DNA of 64,000 nucleotides from Octopus vulgaris. Its lineage: Eukaryota. The notes under the pieces are model-generated. The model had not been told where the DNA came from, did no database searches, and saw only the letters and a list, made by a program, of their open reading frames with translations. Made by a program: the position numbers and the translations under genes. Each line of letters starts with the position of its first letter. Within the stretch, counting starts at the first letter, position 1. Shown here piece after piece: positions 3,384 through 60,382 of this stretch. The stretch is from NCBI GenBank assembly GCA_951406725.2, contig OX597815.1, positions 49,166,001 to 49,230,000 on the forward strand, in the 5' to 3' direction.

Positions 3384-3942
3384 GGACGCGAAATTTGTTT
3401 TTTCCATGCGAGTTCCGGATCCCAGTTGAGAACTCATTTGCATACACCCAATCAGAGCTCAGCTATCAAACTAGAGTCCACCTAGTTACGAAAATACTCT
3501 GGTCGAGTTCAGTGGAAAATGAGTGTCATTGCAAAATTTAACTGTTCTAAACAGGTTAATAGGGGTGACAAATATGAAATTTAGAGTATAAAGTGAATGG
3601 AGATTCGCTCACCGATGAGGCCAAAAGTGTTGCCAATTTGCGTAATTTACTAGAAAATGTAAATGAGTGTAGTTTCCTAATCTCAGTCTGAGCATAGGTA
3701 CCTAATGTTAGCTCCATATAGAGATGGTGCTTAATTGATCTATGATGATGGTGAGCGGATGTGGTGCTTATGTGAAACCTGCTATGCTGTACTCACAGAG
3801 TGACATACACCGTTCTATGCCTGACTGGTTGTACTGTAATAGTACACAGTATGTGGATTTTCAAGCTGAGCTCTGATTGGCTGTATGCAAATGAGTTCAT
3901 TACTGGGGTCCGGAACTCTCGCGGGAAGAAAATTTCACGTCC
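3384..3942. mobile_element. MITE-like non-autonomous DNA element with ~85-bp imperfect TIRs, inserted in a decayed SINE
   Basis: GGACGCGAAATTT...AGTTCCGGATCCCAGT...CTCATTTGCATACACCCAATCAGAGCTCAGCT (3384-3465) is an imperfect reverse complement of 3864-3942. Confidence 0.8.
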
Positions 3943-4708: not shown

Positions 4709-4819
4709 ATATCAATGTAAGTAATCTCCAGAAATCTTGAATCTAAAAACACTTTCCACTTTATTAAAATGCAGGACAACTCCGATTAACAAAAGTAAGA
4801 TGATATAAAATCCACAAAC

Positions 4820-5535
4820 AACTCAACTTGATTTCGAGCCGGGTCGTCTGCTGCTGGAGAGGACCGATCAGGTAAAGGACCTGGGTATCTTGGTGGATTC
4901 CTCCTTTTCGCCTTCGGCCCAGTGCGTCCATGCTGCCAACAAAGCGCGCGGAATTCTGTTTTTGATTCGACGGTCATTCGGAGTGCTCACAGCAGCCATA
5001 TTCCTGCCACTCTATGTCACGCTGGTGAGACCCATATTGGAGTATGGGATTCAAGCCTCTTCTCCTTATCTCCTCAAAGACATACAGCACCTCGAAAGAG
5101 TCCAGAGGCTGGCTACCCGCCTGGTTCATGGTCTCAAAAATTTGTCCTACGAAGAAAGGCTGAGGACGCTCGACCTTTATTCTCTTGAAAAACGCCGCCG
5201 CCGTGGTGATCTCATTCTCGCCCACAACATCATAAGCGGGAAGTGTAACCTCTCGAAAGAGCTGTTCTTCACTCCTGCTCCGGAGCGTCGGCTGCGGGGT
5301 CATTCCGAAAAGCTCTACCTGCGACGATTTCATCTCAATCGAAGGAGAGGAGCTTTCTCCGTCCGGGTTGCGGATCCATGGAACAAGCTGCCAGATGAGA
5401 TGGTGAAGATGCCGACGACCGCTTTGTTCAAAGCCTCCCTGGACCTCAAGTGGCCTGAACTCTTTACATGAACACCACCCTGTACTTAACTCCATGTCCC
5501 CCTACATGGCCTTGCTATTTGCTTTTGAGCCAAAT

Positions 5536-6024: not shown

Positions 6025-6140
6025 TATATATATATATAGATATAATAAAAGGGTAAAATTAATTAATTAAATGAATTAATTAATCAATCAATTAATTAAT
6101 AATTTTACCAAGTAGATCGGTACGTTAAAATAAACTTTAT

Positions 6141-6548
6141 AGGCGCAGGAGTAGCTGTGTGGTAAGTAGCTTGCTAACCAACTACATGGTTCCGGGTTCA
6201 GTCCCACTGCGTGGCATCTTGGGCAAGTGTCTTCTGCTATAGCACCGGGCCGACCAATGCCTTGTGAGTAGATTTGGTAGACGGAAACTGAAAGAAGCCT
6301 GTCGTATATATGTATATATATATATGTATGTGTGTGTATGTGTTTGTGTGTCTGTGTTTGTCCCCCTAGCATTGCTTGACAACCGATGCTGGTGTGTTTA
6401 CGTCCCCGTCACTTAGCGGTTCGGCAAAAGAGACCGATAAGTACTGGGCTTACAAAGAATAAGTCCCGGGGTCGATTTGCTCGACTAAAGGCGGTGCTCC
6501 AGCATGACCGCAGTCAAATGACTGAAACAAGTAAAAGAGTAAAAGAGA
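6141..6548 (+). mobile_element. SINE family A, young subfamily
   Basis: Full length; shares diagnostic variants with 40241-40650. Confidence 0.92.
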
Positions 6549-6804
6549 GAGAGGTAATATTATGCAAATATTCTACAATTATAAACATAATTATAATTAG
6601 GCGTCAGCTAATTGCTTTACCACATACCGAATTTAGAAATAAGAGTTAAAAATTCCTTTTCTGCTACTGTATGAATCTCCACGACAATAAGACATCTTTG
6701 CTTACGTAAAAAAGTGTAATAGGACGATAAAGATATATATATATATATATATTAATAAATAAAACATATGCATAGAATAAGTACTAGGCTTACAATGAAT
6801 AAGT

Positions 6805-18335: not shown

Positions 18336-19660
18336 TAAAGTAACAGTTTAGAAAAAAAACATTGGTTTCATATCTAGCGTAAACTAGAAATATCTTCAGT
18401 TTCTCTAAACGATAACTGTTCTCTGCAAAGAATATTTTTTAAAACACAAGAACGCCGGTGTTCAAGAAATATTCCTCTTAAAAAATTATGGCCGAGCGCT
18501 TTGTCTTCACTTGATGGCTAAGTTTTCCAATTTTGAAGAAAAAATTTCCGAAAATATGGACAACTCCCTACGGCTTCCATCCTAGAATTCAGGTAGCATC
18601 GTGGCTCATGTGAATTCATAAGGATTATATATATTTTCTGCCATACACAATTTACATAGTTTTGTTCCATTGCGATAGGGCCCACAAATTTCCAATAATT
18701 TCTACCTGATGTTAAAGGGCGTATGATCGTCCTTTAGGCGCTATACGTATTCTGCGAGTGTCGTTGTGTTGCGTCTCTCCGGAACCCTGAAAGAAGATCT
18801 GTGGTTGTTCAGGCGAATTTTAAATTTGGATTCACAAGATCCGACATAAATTTTAGTGTGTGTCCCTGTGTTGGCATTGATGTTATTGATATTTGTGCTG
18901 CTTCTGTTTGAGGCTACCGTTGCTTGGTTCACTGTAGCCTCGGTGTTACATCAATTGTCTACTGGGCATTCATTTCTAATCCTGCATAAACAACCTGCCA
19001 CTGTCCGTGGTTTAAGAGTGCTAAGTAATTTTTTCTTAACATTGGGTGCACAACTGAAAAAGATTCTTATATTATGCCTTTTTAAAGACCTTTCTGTATT
19101 TGTGCGACCACGGGAAATGTTTATCAACCAACCTAAGAAAAATCTTATCTATGCATGTCCGGATGTTTAGGGAGAAGGGGGAGCGAAGGGGTCTTGCAGT
19201 TGCGTTTCCTTTTATGGTTACTCGATCCTAATATATGTGCTATATGGTCCTTGAACCCGCTGGCCGCTAGTGCCTCATTGTAAGTGGGAGCCGCTGCGTT
19301 GAAAATATCTTCATTTGAAGATAAGATCGAAATCCATTTACTGATACCTTTTATTAGGTTTTTGAACACTATGGGTGGGTGGCAGGAGGCTGTATTAATG
19401 TATGATAGCCTATCATTCGGTTTGCAGTATGGTCTGTAGGTGCCACTATCTAAATCAAGTGTGACATCCAAGAAGTTCACCACGGTGAGATTAGTCTCTA
19501 TGGTGATTTGAAGGCCAAGGTTGTTGAGGATGTGCATGATGTCTTTTCTAAGCCTATCTAGAGTATGGCCGTTAGTGCCTCTGGAGACAGCTAAGGCATC
19601 ATCTCTATATAAGCCGAAGTGGACAGAGGGAAATTTATTACCCAGGGTGTCCAGAATGTA
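18336..19660 (-). mobile_element. 5'-truncated Penelope-like retroelement (RT C-half, Cys-rich linker, C-terminal GIY-YIG endonuclease, terminal repeat)
   Basis: FGLYRDDAL...VNFLDVTLDL...YRPYCKPND..SYINTASCHPP (ORF 19145-19735); CLCRIRNECP linker near 18960-18990; KIYVGSCESKFKIRLNNHRSSF (18741-18932); CKLCMAE...LNSRME further 3'; frameshifts and stops present. Confidence 0.9.
18346..18410 (-). ncRNA. Hammerhead-like motif in the Penelope 3' terminal repeat
   Basis: Minus strand GUUUAGAGAAA-CUGAAGA-UAUUUCUAG uuuacg CUAGAUAU-GAAAC-caau-GUU-UUUUUUCUAAAC. Confidence 0.65.
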
Positions 19661-20799
19661 TATATGGGTATAGAACGTCACCAACAGTGAACAATACGAA
19701 ATATTAAAACAAATGAGTTCAATACAACGAAACAAATGGAAAACAGGGCAGGTGACACAAAAAAACGACCCTTCATCAGTTATCGGCTGTCTAACTGCTC
19801 CTCATTTCGAGCATTGAACGACAATGTGAGTCTTCGAAGACAGTTGCTCCCATAAGTACCAAAATAAAATTCTGGATTTATGGAGGGTCAAAATTGGAAA
19901 CAAAAACAGGATAGTGAAAACATACAAGGAAACCGAACGAAAGCAAACATGGAGGGTCGTTAGAAGAGAACGAGGGTAAAATAGCGAACGCTGGAGATAT
20001 ATTTTCTTTGAAAAGAGAAATGATAGAAGAGAGAGATAGAATACGTCCAGTCCTTAGGACAGACCTGAAAGGAAAAAAGATGATCACGTGAGGAAAAGAA
20101 AGACAGCCGTTGTCTTTAACATCTAGGACAAGATAATTTGTCAGTGATAGTTATACCCATCTACGCGCTGAACAAGGAAGAACTAACTAAAACACTTCTA
20201 ATCCAACCACATACACCATATACAATACGTACCGCATATTTATGTATAAATGCACACACACACACACACATATATATGTATATGTACGTGTAACTCTCTT
20301 TTTATATATATGTGTGTGTGTGTTTGTATGTACGTATGCATCTATGTATAAGCACTGAGAATGTGCTTGGTAAAATTTGAAAAATGTTCATCTACTGTTG
20401 CAAAAGAAAGAAATTAATAAAATTTATCAGAAAATTATTTCTTTTGACGATAAATCATGTCAAGTGTGCGGATCATAGGAATTGAGTTCAGTATATTACT
20501 GCTAGGATTTTATCATTCCTTTGGTAGTTTTCCCTAATCTCAATATGATCGAATAACACTGAGAGTAATACAGTATCTGTCTATGGTTGTGTCTTCTGTT
20601 CAAATTAACATGCAATATATAGGGGAAGTTTCAACAGCACAAAAATAAAATCACTGTAGATATCAAAGAAACGGTCTTGTATTTCAGTCTCTCTCTCTAG
20701 TTTTGGATAACAATTTTCGTAATTAATGTAGCTACAAAGTCTCAGTTTCACAATCACTAATGATCTATCATTCTTGGCGATTTCATTATTCTTAACACT

Positions 20800-33095: not shown

Positions 33096-33144
33096 AAATA
33101 GAGAGAGAGTTTTTGAGGTGATGTACAGGAGTTGTATATTTAGA

Positions 33145-33351
33145 ATAATAAGGTAATCAGTATGTTGGATGATTATATATATTTTTCTATTTATTTACAT
33201 GTTATTTACAATTTTAGCGCTTTCTTTCGTTATCGGATTTTTTCTTTTTTTTTCTTTTTGAGAAATCCGATAACGGAAGAAAGCGCTAAAAATATAATTA
33301 AGATGTAAATGAATAAAAAATATATATAGCCATCCAACATTCTGACTACCT

Positions 33352-33357
<6 letters not shown>
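33145..33357. repeat. Fold-back hairpin with ~100-bp arms next to (TA)n
   Basis: ATAATAAGGTAATCAG...TTTTAGCGCTTTCTTTCGTTATCGGATTT / AAATCCGATAACGGAAGAAAGCGCTAAAA...CTGACTACCTTATTAT. Confidence 0.9.
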
Positions 33358-33381
<24 letters not shown>

Positions 33382-33815: not shown

Positions 33816-33854
<39 letters not shown>

Positions 33855-33863
33855 CGTACATAC

Positions 33864-34056
33864 AGGCGCAGGCGTGACTGTGTGGTAAGAACCTTGCTTC
33901 CCAATCACATGGTTCTGTGTTCAGTCCCACTGCGTGGCACCTTGGGCAAGTGTCTTCTGCTATAGCCTCGGGCCGACCAAAGCTTTGTGAATGGATTTGG
34001 TAGATTTGGTAGACGGAAACTGAAAGAAGCCTGTTTTGTGTGTGTTTGTGTGTGTT

Positions 34057-34116
<60 letters not shown>

Positions 34117-34290
34117 TGTGTGTGTGTGTCTGTGTGTTTGTGTGTGTGTTTATGTCTCCGGCAAAGTGCTCGATAGAACAAGTACTAAGCTTACAAAGGA
34201 TAAGTCCTGAGGTCGATTTGTTCGACTAAAACCCCTTAAGGTGTTACTCCAGCATAGCAGCAGTCAAATGAATGAAACAAATAAAAGAAT
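33864..34290 (+). mobile_element. SINE family A with expanded (TG)n core
   Basis: Family A head and tail. Confidence 0.9.
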
Positions 34291-34450
34291 ATATATTGTT
34301 TGTTTTCCAAGATCCCGGGAACTTGCTGAAAATTATAAGATATATATATAGCAGGAAATATTTGACATACATTTTCACTTAATTACGATAAACATATTTT
34401 ACGTTGTCATTGATTTTACTTACATAATCGTTTCTTCTTTACATCGTGAT

Positions 34451-34666
34451 ACTCTTTTACCTTTTTATTTGTTTCAGTTATTTGACGGTGGCCATGCTGG
34501 AGCACCGCCTTTAGTCGAGCAAATCAACCCCAGGACTTATTCTTTGTAAGCCTAGTACTTATTCTATCGGTGTCTTTTGCCGAACCGCTAAGTTACGGAG
34601 ACGTAAACACACCAGCATCGGTTGTCAAGCGATGTTGGGGGGATAAACACAGACACAGAAACGTAC

Positions 34667-34715
<49 letters not shown>

Positions 34716-34881
34716 TACGACGGGCTCCTTTCAGTTTCCGTCTACCAAATCCATTCACAAGGCTCTGGTCGGCCCGAGGTTATAGTAGAAGACACTTGCC
34801 CAAGGTGCCACGCAGGGGGACTGAACCCGGAACCATGTGGTTCGTAAGCAAGCTACTTACCACATAGCCACTCCTACGCCT
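34451..34881 (-). mobile_element. SINE family A, full length
   Basis: Reverse match to 681-1110. Confidence 0.92.
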
Positions 34882-35185
34882 ATTTATTTTTGGTCGAACA
34901 ATGTGTCCCAAATGTATGTTGGGAAAATTTCAGTGTCATAAAACTGAATTCGAATATACAATATGTAAAGAAATAGAGGTAGGTCAACGAGCAGTCTTAC
35001 ATCACTCGCAGAAAAAGCTTGAGATTGACAAAGCAGTTGAAATGAATACAAAGCGCAAAATCGAGGAATGTGCTACAGCTGCAACTTGTAGCAAGCAACA
35101 GCCGTATCGTGTAAGCCTTGTCATCGTCTGTCTGCTTTTGTTTTGCAATGTTTTTCTTTCATTCATATAATCATTTATTTGTATT

Positions 35186-35393
35186 TTCTTTTCTTTTACT
35201 TGTTTCAGCCATTTGACTGCGGTCGTGCTTGAGCACATCCTTTAGTCGAACGAATCGACCCCAGGATTTATTCTTTGTAAGCCTAGTACTTACTGTATCG
35301 GTCTCTTTTGCTGAAATGCTAAGTTACGGGGACGTAGACACACCAACATCGGTTGTCAAGCGATGTTGGAGGGACAAAAACAGACACACAAAC

Positions 35394-35426
<33 letters not shown>

Positions 35427-35640
35427 CGATGGGCTTCTTTCAGATTCCATCTACCAAATCCACTCACAAGGCTACAGCAGAAGACCCTTGCCCAAGGTGC
35501 CACGCAGTGGGATTGAATCCAGAACCATGTGGTTGAGAAGCAAGCTTCTTACCACACAGCCACTCCTGTCAAGAAACATTCTATTACTCTTTTACTTATT
35601 TCAGTCATTTGACTGCGGCCATGCTGCAGCACCGTCTTCA
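35186..35640 (-). mobile_element. SINE family A (35186-35568) plus a tail fragment (35586-35640)
   Basis: Reverse match to family A. Confidence 0.88.
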
Positions 35641-35758
35641 AGCATTTTAGAAGAAATAATAACAACATTCGTTTTACTAAACAGTATCTCAACCAATTCT
35701 AAATAATAGAATAAAAGAGTTTATGAGAAAGTCTTTCAGAGATATCTTTTATCTTTTA

Positions 35759-36143
35759 CTAGCAGTATCGCCCGGCGTTGCTCAGGTTTGTAAGGGAAAT
35801 AACTATAAAGCATTTTTAGAGAGTTATAGCCAAAAAATAGCAAAAAAAATGGAAAAAAATGATGGTAAATTTTTTTTGAGATTTAAAAAAGGTGGAGTTG
35901 CGTCTCCTAGACAGTTTATGGTTTGTGTTTCTGATTCTCGACCCCATGTCGAATTTATCGATTTTTTTCAGAACTGGGGGAACTTTTCAAAATTTTCGCT
36001 GCGTTAGTTTTGAATTATGACATTGGGCTATGTGTGTGTCAAGTTTCATCAGAATCGGTTGAAAGCCGTGGTCAGGGTGAGGGTACAAGCAAACAGACAC
36101 ACAGAAACACGCACAGACAAACTGCCGTTTATATAGAGAGAGA
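35759..36143 (-). mobile_element. Non-autonomous Helitron
   Basis: Minus strand begins A|TC(TC)n and ends with hairpin CCTGAGCAACGCCGGG then CTAG|T; no TSD; inserted in a SINE-A tail. Confidence 0.8.
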
Positions 36144-36144
36144 T

Positions 36145-36543
36145 ATTTTGCTTGTCACTGGACTGCGGCCATACTGGGGTACCACTCCGAGGAAATTTTA
36201 TTCGAATGAACCAACTCCAGTACTTTTTTTAAAGCCTGATACTTATTCTATCGATCTTTATTGCTGAACAGCTAAGTTACGGAGACGTAAACACACCAAC
36301 ACCACGTGTGAAGCGGGGGCCAGAGGTCGAACACAGACACAAAGACACACACATATACATATATATATATGCACACATATGTGCATATGTAAGCATACAC
36401 ACACACGACGGGCTTCTTTCAGTTTCCGTCTACCAAATCTACTCATAAGATTTTAGCCGGCTGGAGGCGTCATACTGTAGGACAGAACTAAGATCCATGT
36501 GGTAGGAAAACAAGCTTCTTACCACACAGCCACACCTGTGCCT
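36145..36543 (-). mobile_element. SINE family A (diverged)
   Basis: Reverse match to family A. Confidence 0.82.
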
Positions 36544-36787
36544 ATAATGGATACCATTCAGAAAACTCGATTGCAAGGAATGGAATTTGTTCCTTTGACC
36601 ATTAAATTAATAGGGTGCATATTCTCTGAAGTTGCGACTTAATTATATTCAAAACCAAGATTTAGTTTATCCTCAGAAGTATACACCTCTCTTAATTCCA
36701 GTATTTTGATATGGATGTCCATGGAAAAATAATGAAGCAATCTGGTATCTTTGACACTCTTTCTACAGAAATGTTGTTGAAATAATT

Positions 36788-37175
36788 CGTGGCTGTGTGA
36801 TAAGAAGCTTGTTTCCCAACCACATGGTTCCGGATTCAGTCCCACTGCGTGGCACCTTGGGCAAGTTTCTTCTACTACAGCCTCGGGCTGACCAAAGCCT
36901 TGTGAGTGGATTTGGTAGAGGGAAACTGAAAGAAGCCCGTCGTATATGTATGTATATATCTATGTGTGTGTGTCTTTGTGTCTGTCCTCCCACCATCGCT
37001 TGACAACCAATGTTGGTGTGCTTACGTCTCCGTAAATTGGTGGTTCGGCAAAAGAGACCGATAGAATAAGTACTTGGTTTACAAAGAATAAGTCCTGGAG
37101 TCGATTTCTTCGACTAAAATCCTTTAAGGCAGTGCTCCAGCATGTCCACAGCCATATGACTGAAGCAAATAAAAG
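36788..37175 (+). mobile_element. SINE family A
   Basis: Colinear with family A. Confidence 0.9.
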
Positions 37176-39781: not shown

Positions 39782-39958
39782 AGGTGTGGCAGTATATGGT
39801 AAGAAGCTTGCTTTCCAACCACAGAGTTCCAGTTTCAGTCCATAGTTCCGGGTTCATTCCCACTGCAAAGCACCTTGGGCAAGCGTCTTCTACTATAGCT
39901 TCAGGCCGACCAAACCCTTGAGAGTGGATTTGGTAGATAGAAAGTGAAAGAAGCCCGT

Positions 39959-40010
<52 letters not shown>

Positions 40011-40229
40011 TGTGTGTATTTGTGTGTCTGTGTTTGTCCCCCAATATCGCTTGACAACTGATGCTGGTGTGTTTATGTGGTCGTAACTTAGCGGTTCGGC
40101 AAAAGAGACCGATAGAATAAGTACTAGGCTTACAAAGAATAAGTCCTGGGGTCGATGTGCTCGACTAAAGGCGGTGCTCCAGCATGGCTACAGTGAAATG
40201 ACTGAAACAAGTAAAAGAGTAAAAGAATA
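39782..40229 (+). mobile_element. SINE family A (older), first of a tandem pair
   Basis: Colinear with family A. Confidence 0.9.
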
Positions 40230-40240
40230 TTTATATATAT

Positions 40241-40650
40241 AGGCGCAGGAGTGGCTGTGTGGTAAGCAGCTTGCTAACCAACCACATGGTTCCGGGTTCA
40301 GTCCCACTGCGTAGCATCTTGGGCAAGTGTCTTCTGCTATAGCCCCGGGCCAACCAATGCCTTGTGAGTGGATTTGGTAGACGGAAACTGAAAGAAGCCT
40401 GTCGTATATATGTATATATATATGTGTGTGTGTATATGTGTTTGTGTGTCTGTGTTTGTCCCCCTAGCATTGCTTGACAACCGATGCTGGTGTGTTTACG
40501 TCCCCGTCACTTAGCGGTTCGGCAAAAGAGACCGATAGAATAAGTACTGGGCTTACAAAGAATAAGTCCTGGGGTCGATGTGCTCGACTAAAGGCGCTGC
40601 TCCAGCATGGCTACAGTGAAATGACTGAAACAAGTAAAAGAGTAAAAGAA
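40241..40650 (+). mobile_element. SINE family A (young 5' part), second of a tandem pair
   Basis: 5' part near-identical to 6141-6548; 3' ~100 bp near-identical to its upstream neighbour. Confidence 0.92.
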
Positions 40651-40665
40651 TATATATATATGTAA

Positions 40666-42805: not shown

Positions 42806-43091
42806 TTAGGGAGTATAACTTCAAACTTACAGGGAAAAATTCAATTTAGTATTAAATCAAATTTCACAATATAAATATGTAATATATATAAATTAGAGAA
42901 AAACCACTTTTATGCAATTCAAACAATGAATTTAAATTGTTGTCATGAAACGTACGTATTTTTTTTTATTATATATTGTTTATTCATTTTTGTACTTTTT
43001 GTGATCTAGTTATATCTTTTAAAATATATTTTATTTATGATTTGGTTTATGTCTATCATTGTTTGAATTGCATAATAGTGGTTTTTCTCTA

Positions 43092-43104
<13 letters not shown>
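42806..43104. mobile_element. (TA)n-embedded element with inverted arms
   Basis: AATTAGAGAAAAACCACT-TTATGCAATTCAAACAATGA (42891-42929) is inverted at 43056-43094; homologue at 31197-31403. Confidence 0.8.
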
Positions 43105-43157
<53 letters not shown>

Positions 43158-46771: not shown

Positions 46772-48549
46772 CAGCAGCAATAACATCAACATCATCGTCA
46801 TCATCATCATCTCCACTTCTACCACTATCCTACTATCCTACAGTATCTTCCACCACTATCCCACTATCCAACAAAAGACAGATAAATTGGACAATGTCCT
46901 CTGAGTAAACTTATAATTAGAAACATTCCAACAGAGACCGTCAAGTCTTTCTATGTTTACTCGTAACTGTATGCAGCACTACATTATGGAATTTGTTCTT
47001 CCTGTTTTCAGATAGTAAGGTGTGCTTTGATGAAGACTGGGTGCCATTTCTAGCAGGTAGCCAGAAAAAAAAAAGATGAAATGGTCACGGTTGGATAACC
47101 GTTGATTTTAGACCTGCTCCACTAGGAATGACTTGATGGTGATGGGAATGATGGAGGTGGTGATGGGGATGATGGAGGTGGTGATGGGGATGATGGAGGG
47201 GGTGATGGGGATGATGGAGGTGGTGATGGTTTAAAAAAAAACACCAACAAAAACAGCTGCAACAGTTGAGATAAATGAAACGCATGCAACAGATCAAAAG
47301 TACAAACTCACTCTCTGAGCAGCCCATTCGCCCTGTTCTGTGCCAACTCGACACCCATCCCTGTGTTGTTCCTGTCTATATTTCGCAGACATAATGGTAG
47401 ATCAATGAATGACCAGACCAAATAAGCCATCAGCAGAGAAATCCATTGAGCAATATCGGTAAAAACAGACAACAAAAGATTCCTTCATCGCTACCATCAC
47501 CACTAACAATACCTCCGTCGCCATCCTCACCACGACTTTACCACAACATAACTACATTCATTATTATACTGCCACTATCATCACCATCACTACTATCGTC
47601 AACCCCAACACCTCAAGCTATACGACATCACTCCCACCACAACACCACCACCAACAACAAAAACATCACACTTTTATATAACTCCCCACCCGCCAGCATT
47701 CTCCATTACCACTGTTACATATTTATTAGACATGCTTATTGGTTTTAATATATTGGCAAAACATTTTTTTAAAACCAAAATCAAATTTTCAACGTTTTGT
47801 TGAAGTAACCCCACTCCCTCCTTTCCTCCCCATGTTTGTCTCCCCTCCTCACTCCTTCTCTTTGTCTCTGAGTTTCTCTTTTTGCAAATTATTTTCATTG
47901 CTGTTTTGACTTTTCTATCCACATCTCCTCACATCCACGTTTTAATGTGGAAGCTACTGGTTGTTGCTGTTGTCTAGTTGTTGTTTAGCTCCAGGTCAGC
48001 ACTGATGGCAACGTGAGCTGTATATGATGTTGTTGTTGCTGCTGTTGCTGTTTAACCCAAGATCAACCCTGATTAAGCAGTTGTGGTTACCCTTGTAGGT
48101 TGTGTTTGATGATGCTTTTGTTGTCGATGTTGTTGTTAAGCCCTCAAACCAACAAGAAAACACAAACACAACTAAGGCTAAAACTGCGGAAACAATAAAA
48201 CTCAAACTGTACAAAAACAATTTCCATCACCTTCACTGTTGTGAATAAAAACAACAGAGTCGATGGAATATTTAAATCATGTAAATAATAAAACTGATAC
48301 AGAGAGTGGGGAAGGGTTTAAGTATTTCATAATCAAACTCTGAAAGGCAGTTCCTCGATAAAGACGTCGTCACACATCTACAAAAGAATTCGAGAAAATT
48401 TTCCGTCTACCGTGGGGATTTTCAAAAAGATATCTTTACAAAGCGACAAATTACTTTTAGATAAATTATTTTCAGTAAACAGTCACTCAAGAGAGATCCG
48501 GAACATTCAGGTTTCTCTAAGGCGAGTGACCTTCCCTTTACTTTCTCCG

Positions 48550-50390
48550 ATAAACATGGCTGTGCTGAGATTGATGATGTATGAATGTGCGTGGTCTGAG
48601 GAAACAAAATCGTTCAAAGATCACAAGTCACTTGACATAGATGTAGTAGCTATTAGAGACGCAAAGATTTCTGGAGTGCACACAGTAGCGCCCATTTTCA
48701 ATGACTATGAGATATTCTCAACTCGTGCTCTACCAGGATTGGGTGATGTGGTAGCAGTGCTATTCCGGAACTCCTTAGATCTCAGATGACGGACAGCAAG
48801 TTGGTGGTCCTTGAGGTAAACTGCAGAGAAGGTCGCGCCTTTAGCCCGGAGGCTGCTTATACTCCGACAGATGCTGGGAGGCCAGGTTTCTTCAGACGTC
48901 TAAAAAAATTGATGGGGACATCCTGATCACTATTGCTAGTTGGGAATCGGAATTGTATTTTGGATGCACGGAACAATTGTGTAGGGCTAGTGCATAAACG
49001 AAACAGGTGCAAAAGTTAGGTACCACCTGAAATTCCCTGATGTGCCACCGTAGACATGGAGAAAGTACCGCAGGTCATCTGGATTGTATCTTGGTAAAGT
49101 ATTTGTTAGGTCAGTGGATGAGGATAGCGTAGGATGTTCACTGTTCAAACAGGTCAGCTATACAGATCAGAAGTTTGTAATCTGTTAAGTTGATTTAGAT
49201 ATGAGCCATATTTAGGAACTCTGTTACTGGTTGTTGAATGCATTCTTACAGGCATGCAAAGCTTACAGGGACCGGATTGGTGAACTAGTTAAACGAGTGG
49301 TGGATTGACCTGAAGTGGGCAATTAAAGTAGAATCGATAGCGTCAAGCAAAGAGCTGGCAACAGAAAGAAAAAGATTAGGAGAACTATTAGCAACGGAGA
49401 AGAGGCGATTAGTAAAAGCATCTCGACCGATGTGCTAACGGTGAGATTGACCTTTGGTGATTTCTTCGAGGGGAAACACGAAAGTTGAGTTGTCAAAGAT
49501 AAGGCCTGTGCACTCAAACACGAGGAGAACTAAAGTCGTCTTATGAGCTCGATATGATGTGACAATAAAACGTCAATCAGGTTTCAAGCAGATGTTGGCG
49601 GCTTTCCAGCAGCGCTTTGCATGACTGTTTGGAAGAGATGAGTCAACGATGATAGTTGTCTTTAGTCCGTACCTAGACGGCTAGCTATGGTTATGCCACC
49701 TGTATAGATTCCTAGACAGTGAATGTATGTAAGGCACTGTTCGCGAGGAACATCTTTCTGCAGCTCGTCTCCTTGACAGAGCTGCAGTCCTGGGTGAAGC
49801 ACAAATCGTGACTGGGTGCCTGGCACCTAGAATATCATCAGGCTCTCACCAACCTTTACCAGTCGGGCATTGGGATCAATGGATGATCCACTTTAGCAAT
49901 CTATAGAGAATTAGTAACAGGAAAGTATGATGACATTCTCGGGAAGACTCAGGACGTCGACGAAACGAGCTAGCTAATTTTTTCCGAACGATTCTTCGGT
50001 CGGGGACTATCATGAATAATGTCCAGAAGTTCTTGGCCTGACAGTGCTATCGAGGGACGCTAGCAGTCCGAGATAAACTCTACAGGTACGGATGTGCTGT
50101 CAAACGAGCTGGTCTGAGATGTGTGCAGAGCGACGAAACCGTTATACACATACTCGCTCAGTATCTGGGCATTGTCGACTTGTGGAGTTCTGTCAATCAG
50201 CAACTGTCATGCGTGGGACGGAGCCATCTAACGGTCGAGTTCATATTAATAATTACCTCTTCGCCCTTCTTAAATCGGGCAGGTAACGCCGTTTTCCTTT
50301 GTCTAGTGGACGAGGTTGAAAGGTATGAAAACAGAGGTATCGGGCTCATTAGACGGCTTTAGTTCCCCTCGTGCTTGAGCATGTCCCTTA
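48550..50390 (+). mobile_element. Decayed L1/Tx1-clade LINE ORF2 (APE endonuclease; RT apparently deleted; C-terminal Cys/His motif)
   Basis: DIDVVAIRD, VAVLFR, KLVVLEV...AAYTP...FFRRL...LLLVGNRNCILD, SYTDQK, YWLLNAFL; near 50030-50170 LA*QCYRGTLAVRDKL and CVQSDETVIHILAQ. Confidence 0.75.
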
Positions 50391-52129: not shown

Positions 52130-52255
52130 CATATATATATATATATATATATATAATACGGATGAAAAATTGAATATTAATTTGATTAATATCAATTTTA
52201 AACCAGTGGTCTAGCATATAGAAAAATCTGAAGATTCAGAAAAATTATATTACAT

Positions 52256-52761
52256 ACATATAAGAGGGTAGACCACTAATTGGACATCCATTGTGCTAGA
52301 AGTAGATCTGCTATGGTTTTACCACTAAGAAAGGAATGTTCCCAAGAAAATTTAGCAAACGCCAGAACGTAATCGAGCAAGACAAATGAAAAGATACAAA
52401 ATATACAGATTTATCACAAACCCGGTTTCGTTGTTACCACTTACGTAATCACTTACGTAGATGTCCGCAACTTGTCAGTGTGATCGTCATAGCAAAATAT
52501 AATACACGAGGCGTCCACGTGAGATTGAACATGTATATAATTCTACCAATTACATTTGGGGTTATATTTCAAAAGACTTCGTTTTGGCGCGCAAAAATAC
52601 CAGAAATAATATATATTTTGTATCTTTTCATTTGTCTTGCTCGCTTATGTTCTGGCGTTTGCTAAATTTCCTTGAGGACATTCCTTTCTTAGTGGTAAGA
52701 CCATAGGGAGTCAACTCCTAGCTGAATGGATGTCCACTTAGTAGTCATCCCCCTTATATGT
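52256..52761. repeat. Fold-back element with ~150-bp inverted arms (52256-52405 / 52612-52761)
   Basis: ACCACTAAGAAAGGAATGT...AAATTTAGCAAACGCCAGAAC...CGAGCAAGACAAATGAAAAGATACAAAATATA and its reverse complement. Confidence 0.9.
52413..52484 (-). ncRNA. Type I hammerhead-like motif in the loop of the fold-back
   Basis: Minus strand AUCACA-CUGACAA-GUUG...CAAC-GAAAC-cgg-GUU-UGUGAU: three stems pair; the G8A change is consistent with CpG decay. Confidence 0.65.
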
Positions 52762-52943
52762 GTTGTATCTGAGGAGAGTCAGTCACTTTTAGTGCCTTAT
52801 TATTTAACACACACACACCGATAAAGTTTCCACTGATTTACCTTGTTTTTCTAGAAAAATAAATAAGTAAATGAGTGAAAATTTTACAGATGAGTGTTAA
52901 ATAATAAGGCACTAAAAGTGAATGACTCTCCTCAGATACAACA
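52761..52943. repeat. Fold-back hairpin with ~85-bp arms
   Basis: TGTTGTATCTGAGGAGAGTCA-TCACTTTTAGTGCCTTATTATTTAACAC / reverse complement; centre TTTTTCTAGAAAAA. Confidence 0.92.
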
Positions 52944-53011
52944 AAATATGATTCAACGCACGAACTGACATAAACAATCTTGCAAACCAAATCTAAAAAC
53001 GATATATATAT

Positions 53012-53024
53012 ATTTAATATTTCT

Positions 53025-53062
<38 letters not shown>

Positions 53063-53075
53063 AGAAATATTAAAT
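53012..53075. repeat. Perfect palindrome centred on (TA)n
   Basis: ATTTAATATTTCTGAC(AT)nGTCAGAAATATTAAAT. Confidence 0.95.
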
Positions 53076-53114
53076 TTCTAAATATCTCATAGAGATATGC
53101 ACGGTGGTGGGGCG

Positions 53115-53289
53115 ATAGAATGGTTGTATACTGTCAATTTAACGTGACAGTAGGGGATTACACCACCGCGTAATATATAAGGACACAGGAAAAAAATGTG
53201 TCGAAGCCATCAGGAAGCGTCGATGCTTCCTAGGGCTAAACCGCGGTGGTGTAATCCCCTACTGTCACGTTAAATTGACAGTATACAAC

Positions 53290-53297
<8 letters not shown>
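53115..53297. repeat. Perfect 56-bp inverted repeat with 71-bp spacer, abutting (TA)n
   Basis: 53115-53170 equals the reverse complement of 53242-53297. Confidence 0.95.
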
Positions 53298-53339
<42 letters not shown>

Positions 53340-53369
53340 CGAGTAGTAAATATATATACGTTAAGCGAG

Positions 53370-54039
53370 TAGCCACATCAAAGTGACAGTTGAATGTTAC
53401 TACTAGTTTAACCCCAGGCGGATTCTCCACCAGCTGATTTTCAGTGCAAGCTCTGCACTGTTTATATACAAATACATCGCTTGCAGGGGAAGCGAAACCC
53501 TACTACACTCCAGCAGTGAACAGGAACGCAGGACTGGCCCATTTTCAAACTATTTGGCTCATCCTCTGCCGCGCGCACCTGTGCAGTTGAGTGATAGCTA
53601 AGATCCGCTTCTGCCAGCGATATATTGTAAACAAAGTGACCATCGGTCACTGATTGGCAACAAGCAAAACAGCTACCTATGAAATCTCAAGAAAAGATAG
53701 AATAGTAACAGTAAAGCAGTTAGCCACATCAAAGTGGTTGTTGACGGTTACTAGTAGTTTAACCCCAGGCGGATTCTCCACCAGCTGGTTTTCGATGCAG
53801 GCTTTGCACCCTTTACATACAATACATCGCTAGCTAGGAGAGCGAACCTCTACTGCCCTCCAGCAGAAGCGATGTATGGCATATAAAGGGTGCAGAGCTT
53901 GCACCGAAAACCAGCTGGCGGAGAGTCCGCCGGGATTTAAAACTAGTTATAACATTCAACTGTCACTTTGATGAAGCTACTCACTTCATTGTTCAGTATA
54001 CGTTACTACTCTGTCCCTTGAGATTTTATAACTAGCTGT
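53370..54039. repeat. Direct plus inverted triplication of a ~150-bp unit
   Basis: 53370-53516 resembles 53721-53866 (direct); 53669-53831 is inverted at 53868-54039. Confidence 0.88.
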
Positions 54040-57387: not shown

Positions 57388-57781
57388 CTTTTTCTTTAAT
57401 TTGTTTATTTGTTTCAGTCATTTGACTGCGGCCTTGCTGAAGCACCGTCTTTAGTCGAACAAATCGACCCCAGGACTTATTCTTTGCAAGTCTAGTATTT
57501 ATTCTATCGGTCTCTTTTGCCGAACCGCTAAGTTACGGGGACGTTAACACACTAACATCGGTTGTCAAGCGATGGTGGGAGGACAAACAAAGACACACAC
57601 ACACATATATATATATGTACGATGGGTTTCTTTCAGTTTCCGTCTACCAAATCATCTCACAAGGCTTTAGTCAGCCCGAGGCTATAGTAGAAGACACTAG
57701 CCCAAGGTGCCACGCAGTGGGACTGAACCTGGAATCATGTGGTAAGGAAGCAAGCTTCTTACCACACGGTCACGCCTGCAC
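57388..57781 (-). mobile_element. SINE family A nested in the older copy
   Basis: Reverse match to family A. Confidence 0.9.
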
Positions 57782-58029
57782 CAAGATACTAAACTTTAAA
57801 AGATAAGTAGTTGGATCAATTAGTCTGACTAAAACCCTTCGACATGGTCCTCCAGCATGGCCATAGTATAACGGCTGAAACTAGTCGAAGATAAAAAAAT
57901 TACTTAGATATTACATAAGATACAAAATGACATTAGTAAGTTAAATGTTACATTAATTATTTAGATATTGCATGATATACTACAGTAGTTGAATATTACA
58001 CTGCTTTGGTATTATATCTGTAATAAAGT

Positions 58030-59341: not shown

Positions 59342-60382
59342 GTGTGTATGTTTAATTGTATGCACAACAGTAAAGAAACAAAAGAGAGGAGAAAACAACT
59401 GAGGTTTCACAAAGTGAAACACTGAGTTTCACATTTTAGCGTTTCTCAAGCTTGAGAAGTTAATCAAATGAATTTATATACACATATGAGAAACAAATTA
59501 ATAAAATTGAATTAAAAAAAACCCATTGTATCTTCATATTGATTGTAGAAATCCGTACAAGGATACTAAACATGACATTCTAATTTTTTTTCCGCAAAGT
59601 TCACCTTGTATTCTTTGAACTCAGAAACCAAGGAAATAAATAACGTTCAAGAGATAGACAACAGGGGCGAATTTAAAGTTTTACGACATCCCTAAGGACC
59701 ACGAACAAAATTTTTGTTAATAAAGCAATTTGTAGGTTAATAAATCCAACCAAAATTTAGTTAAGTGTAGTAAGTGGAAATATCTTAGGGGCTTTTAGTC
59801 TTAGCAATAAACAAATAACTAATTAACCATTATGGGATAACAGCACTGCTATCAATAATTGGTTTCATAGTATTAGTAAAAATCTGTTAAGTAAATTTAC
59901 TCAGTTTGGTATAATTGAATTTCTATCATTTGCTAACTGAATCTTTGTTTGAAAAGCATTAGTTTTTACCAATAATTATATTTCAAACACTAAAACTGAT
60001 ATCAAAACGATCACGCATTTAGAAAACCATTGATTTCTTGTGATAATGATGCTAATTCTTTTATTGTAGCAAAGGGTAGCCAAGACTCCACAGAAACTTG
60101 TGATGTTATTGGTATTTATATATTTTTTTTTCTGTAAGTTTAAATTGCAATGTGGCTTGCATCAACATGATAGACATATTATCATACAGAAGATGAATAG
60201 TTAAATTAATGTAGAATTAGAAAAAACGACACAAATTTGTATACACTTGATTTTACAAATTTTGCCATTTATTTCAAAACAAATAAATTCTTAGTCAAAT
60301 GAAACGTTAATATATACATCACTTCAAACCACCCACACGCCAATAAATATTAATGATTTAGTGAAAAATATGAGTAAACTGC

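Follow-up and report, generated by a model that had tools for sequence, protein, structure and literature searches.

An octopus hammerhead ribozyme motif lying in the loop of an inverted repeat raises the question of what kind of mobile element left the repeat behind. The original prediction held that the ribozyme ties the repeat to the terminus of a retroelement rather than to a DNA transposon. The locus belongs to a stretch of 64,000 nucleotides of Octopus vulgaris DNA, hereafter called the window, which is AT-rich and contains many microsatellites. The features at the locus and in its immediate neighbourhood are collected in Table 1.

Table 1. Features of the 506-bp fold-back and of its neighbours (positions in the window)
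Feature	Position	Strand	Basis or remark
Type I hammerhead motif; this copy has G8A	52413..52484	minus	sequence, descriptor scan, folding, family G8
Left arm, putative sense continuation 3' of the ribozyme	52256..52405	minus	arm alignment; bridging pieces
Right arm, putative second copy, inverted and 5'-truncated; starts 6-13 nt 3' of the predicted cut	52612..52761	plus	
127 nt upstream of the ribozyme, putative 5'-truncated sense body	52485..52611	minus	family coverage
One-sided 3' family extension, possible long "tail"	52157..52255	minus	bridging pieces, loose ends
Outer (TA)n tract, likely insertion target	52131..52155	none	
Fold-back of another multi-copy family	52755..53000		arms 52755-52848 / 52861-52948; one-sided extension to TA tract at 53002
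Partial tandem and inverted copy	53360..54039	minus	with weak decayed hammerhead-like motif

The minus strand from 52484 to 52413 reads as had been claimed, with a stem I of six Watson-Crick base pairs, a stem II of four and a stem III of two base pairs. In the core, C3 is at 52478, the G10.1-C11.1 pair at 52471/52430, G12 to A15.1 at 52429-52426 and U16.1 at 52420. The core is canonical everywhere except at position 8 (52473), where A replaces G, in agreement with the single core change described. Since H17 is U at 52419, the predicted cut falls between 52419 and 52418. Folding gives pair probabilities of 0.65-0.99 for stem I and 0.90-0.91 for stem II, and both stems remain, within the loop, when the entire 506-nt fold-back is folded. 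Stem II bears an insert of 34 nt, which folds into a 4x4 internal loop and a hairpin of 11 positions capped by a GNRA loop. The bulk folding energy of a 91-nt stretch with the motif is ordinary (z -0.47). Stem III is unstable as a lone hairpin (+3.7 kcal/mol), but in-register dimerisation stabilises it (-7.3 kcal/mol). Such dimer-dependent stability of stem III has been described for metazoan type I hammerheads, the canonical form of which has helices of 6, 4 and 1-2 bp and a small palindromic loop (PMC4209133).

With a strict descriptor, which allows at most one core mismatch and asks for a stem I of at least 6 and a stem II of at least 4 Watson-Crick pairs, this motif is the sole match in the window, and 40 dinucleotide-shuffled windows give no site. 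A relaxed scan finds six sites in the window, against six in total in 20 mononucleotide shuffles; three of the six lie in settings of the Penelope-like element (PLE) type, namely the present motif, the hammerhead of Hydra-1_Obim and a weak motif at 53568(-). PLE hammerheads have been found genome-wide as single motifs (PMC4209133). The Rfam hammerhead models match neither the window (E<=1) nor 52200-52800 (E<=10), and what Rfam returns in the window is microsatellite-driven miRNA-type noise only. The long stem II together with G8A may be a reason for this miss. The motif is a genuine hammerhead with one broken core base, and G8A is predicted to leave this copy of the ribozyme inactive. In a PLE hammerhead, G8 is essential, its mutation abolishing cleavage and not insertion (PMC11167929).

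Public contigs provide a view of the family beyond this copy. Contigs of four of 24 listed runs (X1, X2, X12 and X14, from organisms A, B, F and A and four studies) were mapped on 52165-52985 at 80% likeness, giving 5747, 2897, 3376 and 641 mapped records, respectively, and contig depth does not measure copy number here; the listings covered 40 of 117 variant rows, 15 of 80 joints and 32 of 12,866 pieces. The hammerhead-bearing unit belongs to a multi-copy family. At 52473, the change from T to C on the plus strand, which is G8 in the ribozyme, accounts for 98.0, 99.0, 91.3 and 100% of the summed contig depth in X1, X2, X12 and X14, with 52, 63, 34 and 5 contigs carrying it. Therefore, the family core is CUGACGA, just as had been foreseen for the consensus, and G8A is private to this copy: judged at G8, the family majority conforms to the rule of CUGANGA, GAAA and UH with three helices, and the present copy departs from this rule at G8. 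Nine of the 32 listed pieces cover the full motif and at least 31 nt of the arm, each with 16-29 differing letters, suggesting that they come from other loci and that the linkage between motif and arm is family-wide. Bridges between arm and ribozyme with at least 31 letters on each side occur in 14 of the 32, and none of these 32 of 12,866 pieces holds the full unit.

Two other listed variants within the stem II insert preserve its structure, the commonest one at 52460 (30-93% of depth) turning the sole mismatch of the stem II extension into a U-A pair and the one at 52450 retaining the GNRA loop. A restoration of GUC or GUA at the cleavage site, which had also been proposed for the consensus, is not needed: none of the 40 of 117 variant rows listed changes H17, and many hammerheads of Hydra-clade PLEs cleave after U (File S2, PMC8557442). 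As for the proposed origin of G8A by CpG deamination, the base change fits, but only one of the 19 arm mismatches is of the CpG type, with 2-3 CpGs per arm; deamination is at most a fair guess. On the minus strand, a TATA-like stretch (52495-52520) precedes the ribozyme by 15-25 nt. Six of the 32 listed contigs stop at 52503 and others are gapped by 13-15 nt; this copy may have an indel at 52495-52520. In metagenome, viral and prokaryote genome contigs, neither the motif nor the arm has an exact-pattern match (0 loci).

The "500-bp fold-back" of the original prediction corresponds to the total span of 506 bp. The arms are 150 bp long, identical at 131 of 150 positions (87-88%) and separated by a spacer of 206 nt. 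As described, 7 nt separate the motif from the inner end of the left arm, and a looser alignment extends the inner end of the arm to 52412. No second or tandem copy of the fold-back is present in the window. The sense orientation was assigned from the strand of the motif and from the coverage rising outward. Beyond the left arm, the extension is covered over at least 91 nt from 52165 and is joined to the arm in 7 of the 32 listed pieces, from three runs. Loose contig ends carry the family about 20 nt beyond 52165, and in the window the family stops at the (TA)n tract. A counterpart of the extension is absent next to the right arm. One X14 contig is a mini fold-back in which the extension occurs on a single side and the short arm has the same outer sequence as the 506-bp fold-back; a matching loose end is found in X1.

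Ten of the 15 listed joints (80 in all) run from the left arm to the right arm with differing inner ends, which lie between 30 nt 5' and 139 nt 3' of the cut; the end of the reference arm limits two of the ten. The arm ends thus do not lie at a fixed distance from the predicted cut, contrary to what had been expected. A target site duplication (TSD) was sought as a direct repeat of 4-15 nt at the arm ends and was not found; the left end lies at (TA)n, and TA occurs near both outer ends. The variable inner ends, the one-sided extension, the (TA)n end and the lack of a TSD together fit a retroelement better than a DNA transposon, and on this central point the original prediction is upheld.

Therefore, the 506-bp fold-back is probably (about 0.8) a scar left by the insertion of a Penelope-like retroelement, or of a non-coding element carried by one. 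A typical PLE insertion has an inverted 5'-truncated copy at its 5' end and optionally a tail of 30-40 bp at one end, and its TSDs are often hidden by microsatellites (PMC8557442, PMC3846280). Two traits of EN+ PLEs are present here: a hammerhead in what appears to be a terminal repeat near the 3' end, and an inverted 5'-truncated copy with varying truncation points. Several features speak against a PLE. No RT or endonuclease sequence is linked to the family, and no TSD was found. The extension of at least 91 nt exceeds the 30-40-bp tail, although a neighbouring insertion may instead have cut the right arm short, and the extra base after A9 that is typical of minimal PLE hammerheads is missing, so that the form resembles the canonical one common in retrozymes.

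The fold-back would thus consist of two copies meeting head-to-head: a 5'-truncated sense copy, which kept the hammerhead of the terminal repeat, and a shorter inverted one. As the PLE literature suggests, the minus-strand RNA would fold stems I and II, and nicks in both strands of AT-rich DNA would come from an RT/GIY-YIG protein. Cleavage after U17 would require a second copy or the help of a protein because the 2-bp stem III is unstable alone and stable as a dimer. The cDNAs would begin at two internal sites, one near 52256 and the other at or beyond 52165, in the extension. The cDNA from the extension would run through the ribozyme to 52611, and the one from the 52256 site would end 6-13 nt short of the cut. 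Both might then be joined head-to-head in the TA tract, after which the arms would have decayed independently (19 of 150 positions mismatched). For the single PLE studied in vitro, the protein nicks both strands of AT-rich DNA, makes cDNA from two internal sites and assists its own ribozyme (PMC11167929).

Three ORF remnants of Hydra-clade PLEs lie in the window, at 19669-18521(-), 55651-54485(-) and 59692-60131(+). Their homologues carry the RWK, CxCX5C, CxxC and CxH motifs, which define the Hydra clade (PMC8557442). Pfam reports 0 families for four ORFs of the window and GIY-YIG, below the cut-off, for one of six homologues. The remnant at 19669-18521(-) matches Hydra-1_Obim of Octopus bimaculoides in protein and DNA by eye. 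It is part of a 5'-truncated Hydra-1_Obim copy at 19669-18345(-) with the C-terminal half of the RT, GIY-YIG, the 3' end and, at 18399(-), the published hammerhead in decayed form. Upstream of this copy, a CUGAUGA near 19775 has a possible stem and lacks a GAAA box. The ORF at 55651-54485(-) is old and heavily broken, with an NKRSEL-type C-terminus, and a very degenerate hammerhead-like stretch near 54235-54180 may be its ribozyme. The remnant at 59692-60131(+) is a third one of Hydra-type RT (profile E 8.8e-17). The nearest of the PLE ORF remnants is 1.9 kb from the fold-back and on the same strand, and no nucleotide match was found between the fold-back unit and any remnant in the window. 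That the ribozyme might have served the old ORF at 55650-54490 as its terminal repeat has no nucleotide support (best E 0.24), and a PLE C-terminus in the 127-nt part of the spacer was rejected because its profile score of -1.1 is equalled by 257 of 300 shuffles. With no RT or endonuclease ORF tied to the family, the family may be non-autonomous.

The first alternative is a non-LTR retrozyme, a non-coding monomer of about 450-500 nt with a canonical type I hammerhead that forms tandem arrays and circular RNA; the present locus would be a solitary copy with an inversion, probably mobilised by a PLE. The canonical 6/4/2-bp build with G10.1-C11.1 and without the extra base would suit such a monomer, as would the lack of an ORF, and one X12 contig that goes back 426 nt (from 52590 to 52165) may mean tandem monomers. 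Mussel retrozymes measure 350-390 bp (PMC7229834), and retrozymes have been proposed to be non-autonomous derivatives of PLEs (bioRxiv 10.64898/2026.07.22.740005). However, the window holds a single hammerhead and no tandem copy, and arm-to-arm joints make up ten of the 15 listed joints, against one that goes back. Moreover, coverage of the ribozyme is 5-27-fold below that of the arm, whereas entire monomers would give even cover. A retrozyme is therefore unlikely.

Still less probable is a DNA transposon of the MITE or fold-back type, in which the 150-bp arms would be terminal inverted repeats and the hammerhead would belong to a captured fragment. Long inverted repeats flanking a short spacer, TA near both outer ends and arms that are covered far better than the spacer in the contigs would all be expected of such an element. 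Its ends, however, should be symmetrical and fixed, which is not what is seen: the inner ends vary, the family continues on the outer side of the left arm only, for at least 91 nt (in 7 of the 32 listed pieces), and the arm ends show no direct repeat of 4-15 nt. The retention of the ribozyme core and stems across the family also argues against such an element. Finally, a hammerhead appearance by chance, to which the silence of the Rfam hammerhead models, the ordinary folding z-score and the one tolerated core mismatch could be taken to point, is essentially refuted by the absence of sites from 40 shuffles and by the mismatched base being a conserved G in 91-100% of the family depth.

The position of the right arm raises a further, tentative idea. 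At this locus the arm starts 6-13 nt 3' of the predicted cut, and in a neighbouring family the corresponding distance is 15 nt. The short inverted arms might thus have been copied from ribozyme-cleaved RNA, in which case genomic fold-backs would preserve a fossil record of hammerheads that cleaved in vivo while Penelope elements transposed. We regard this as possible and rather doubtful. Contig depth falls 2.6-2.9-fold between 52412 and 52423, across the predicted cut, in all four runs, a weak hint that many arms end at the ribozyme. From mid-arm to the ribozyme core the fall is 5-27-fold; the two figures derive from different tables, and depth also dips where this copy is diverged. The role of the PLE hammerhead has been called unclear (PMC8557442), and hammerhead cleavage is dispensable for PLE insertion in vitro (PMC11167929). 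Therefore, the family would matter more if arm starts proved to cluster at the cut site across the genome.

The neighbours of the fold-back (52755-52948, 53115-53297 and 53360-54039) share its layout, with TA tracts between them. At least four unrelated fold-back families lie end to end between TA tracts in 52131-54039, which appears to be an insertion hot spot. The palindrome at 53115-53297 has arms identical at 56 of 56 positions and may be young; a hammerhead reading of its spacer (53171-53241) was rejected by eye because of three core defects and the lack of a local stem I. The neighbouring weak motif at 53574-53526(-), which is the 53568(-) site of the relaxed scan, has U4A and a wobble-rich stem II; its predicted cut lies 15 nt 5' of the start of the next copy, and its free fold does not give the hammerhead shape. 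Further fold-backs lie outside the cluster at 3384-3942, 33135-33368 and 42869-43117, and the scans found no hammerhead in them. A SINE-like repeat with a central TA/CA microsatellite is abundant in both orientations (669-1150, 6129-6560, 33850-37120, 39785-40660, 57390-57800 and others). The frames at 4809-5471(+) and 48322-48789(+), for which Pfam has no match, resemble fragments of a LINE RT C-terminus and an APE endonuclease.

In its kind and layout, a hammerhead-bearing PLE fold-back has already been published and is a fairly ordinary type of insertion scar. PLEs make up 6.83% of the O. vulgaris genome (PMC13282606), and one octopus Hydra family with a hammerhead is known (PMC8557442). 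A literature search found no paper on the present octopus hammerhead family, which Repbase, Dfam, the O. vulgaris repeat library or the supplements of PMC4209133, PMC7229834 and the bioRxiv paper could hold. The supplements of PMC8557442 and PMC13282606 gave no match to short strings of the arm and the motif, although strings crossing line ends could be missed. The locus adds one hammerhead-bearing repeat family to octopus. For annotation, it is relevant that fold-backs of the 506-bp type are easily misfiled as MITEs.

Compared with known systems, the unit shares with the metazoan non-LTR retrozymes described in PMC7229834 a canonical type I hammerhead, a non-coding AT-rich repeat and the dimer-dependent stem III, and it differs from them in its fold-back layout without a tandem array. 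With the Hydra-clade PLE hammerheads of Files S2 and S7 of PMC8557442 it has in common the type I form, a palindromic stem III, frequent cleavage after U, likely (TA)n targets and the same host genus, and the CUGACGA core is also found in Hydra-2_aJap. Loop 2 measures 3-10 nt in the Hydra hammerheads of that table, in contrast to 34 nt here. In Hydra-1_Obim of Octopus bimaculoides the core reads CUGAAGA, loop 2 is 8 nt long and the element ends about 30 nt after the ribozyme; its sequence is unlike the present motif. Identity of the two families was rejected, since the published motif matches the window at 18399(-) and not at 52478 and the two loci have no nucleotide match. With respect to the EN+ PLE insertion unit as depicted in PMC8557442 and PMC3846280, the fold-back differs in that no ORF is seen, in its extension of at least 91 nt instead of 30-40 bp and in that the family has about 160-250 nt or more of element 3' of the cut. 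What it shares with that unit is a sense-strand hammerhead near the 3' end, a shorter inverted copy at the 5' side with variable truncation, a one-sided extension and a likely microsatellite target at which a TSD is not discernible.
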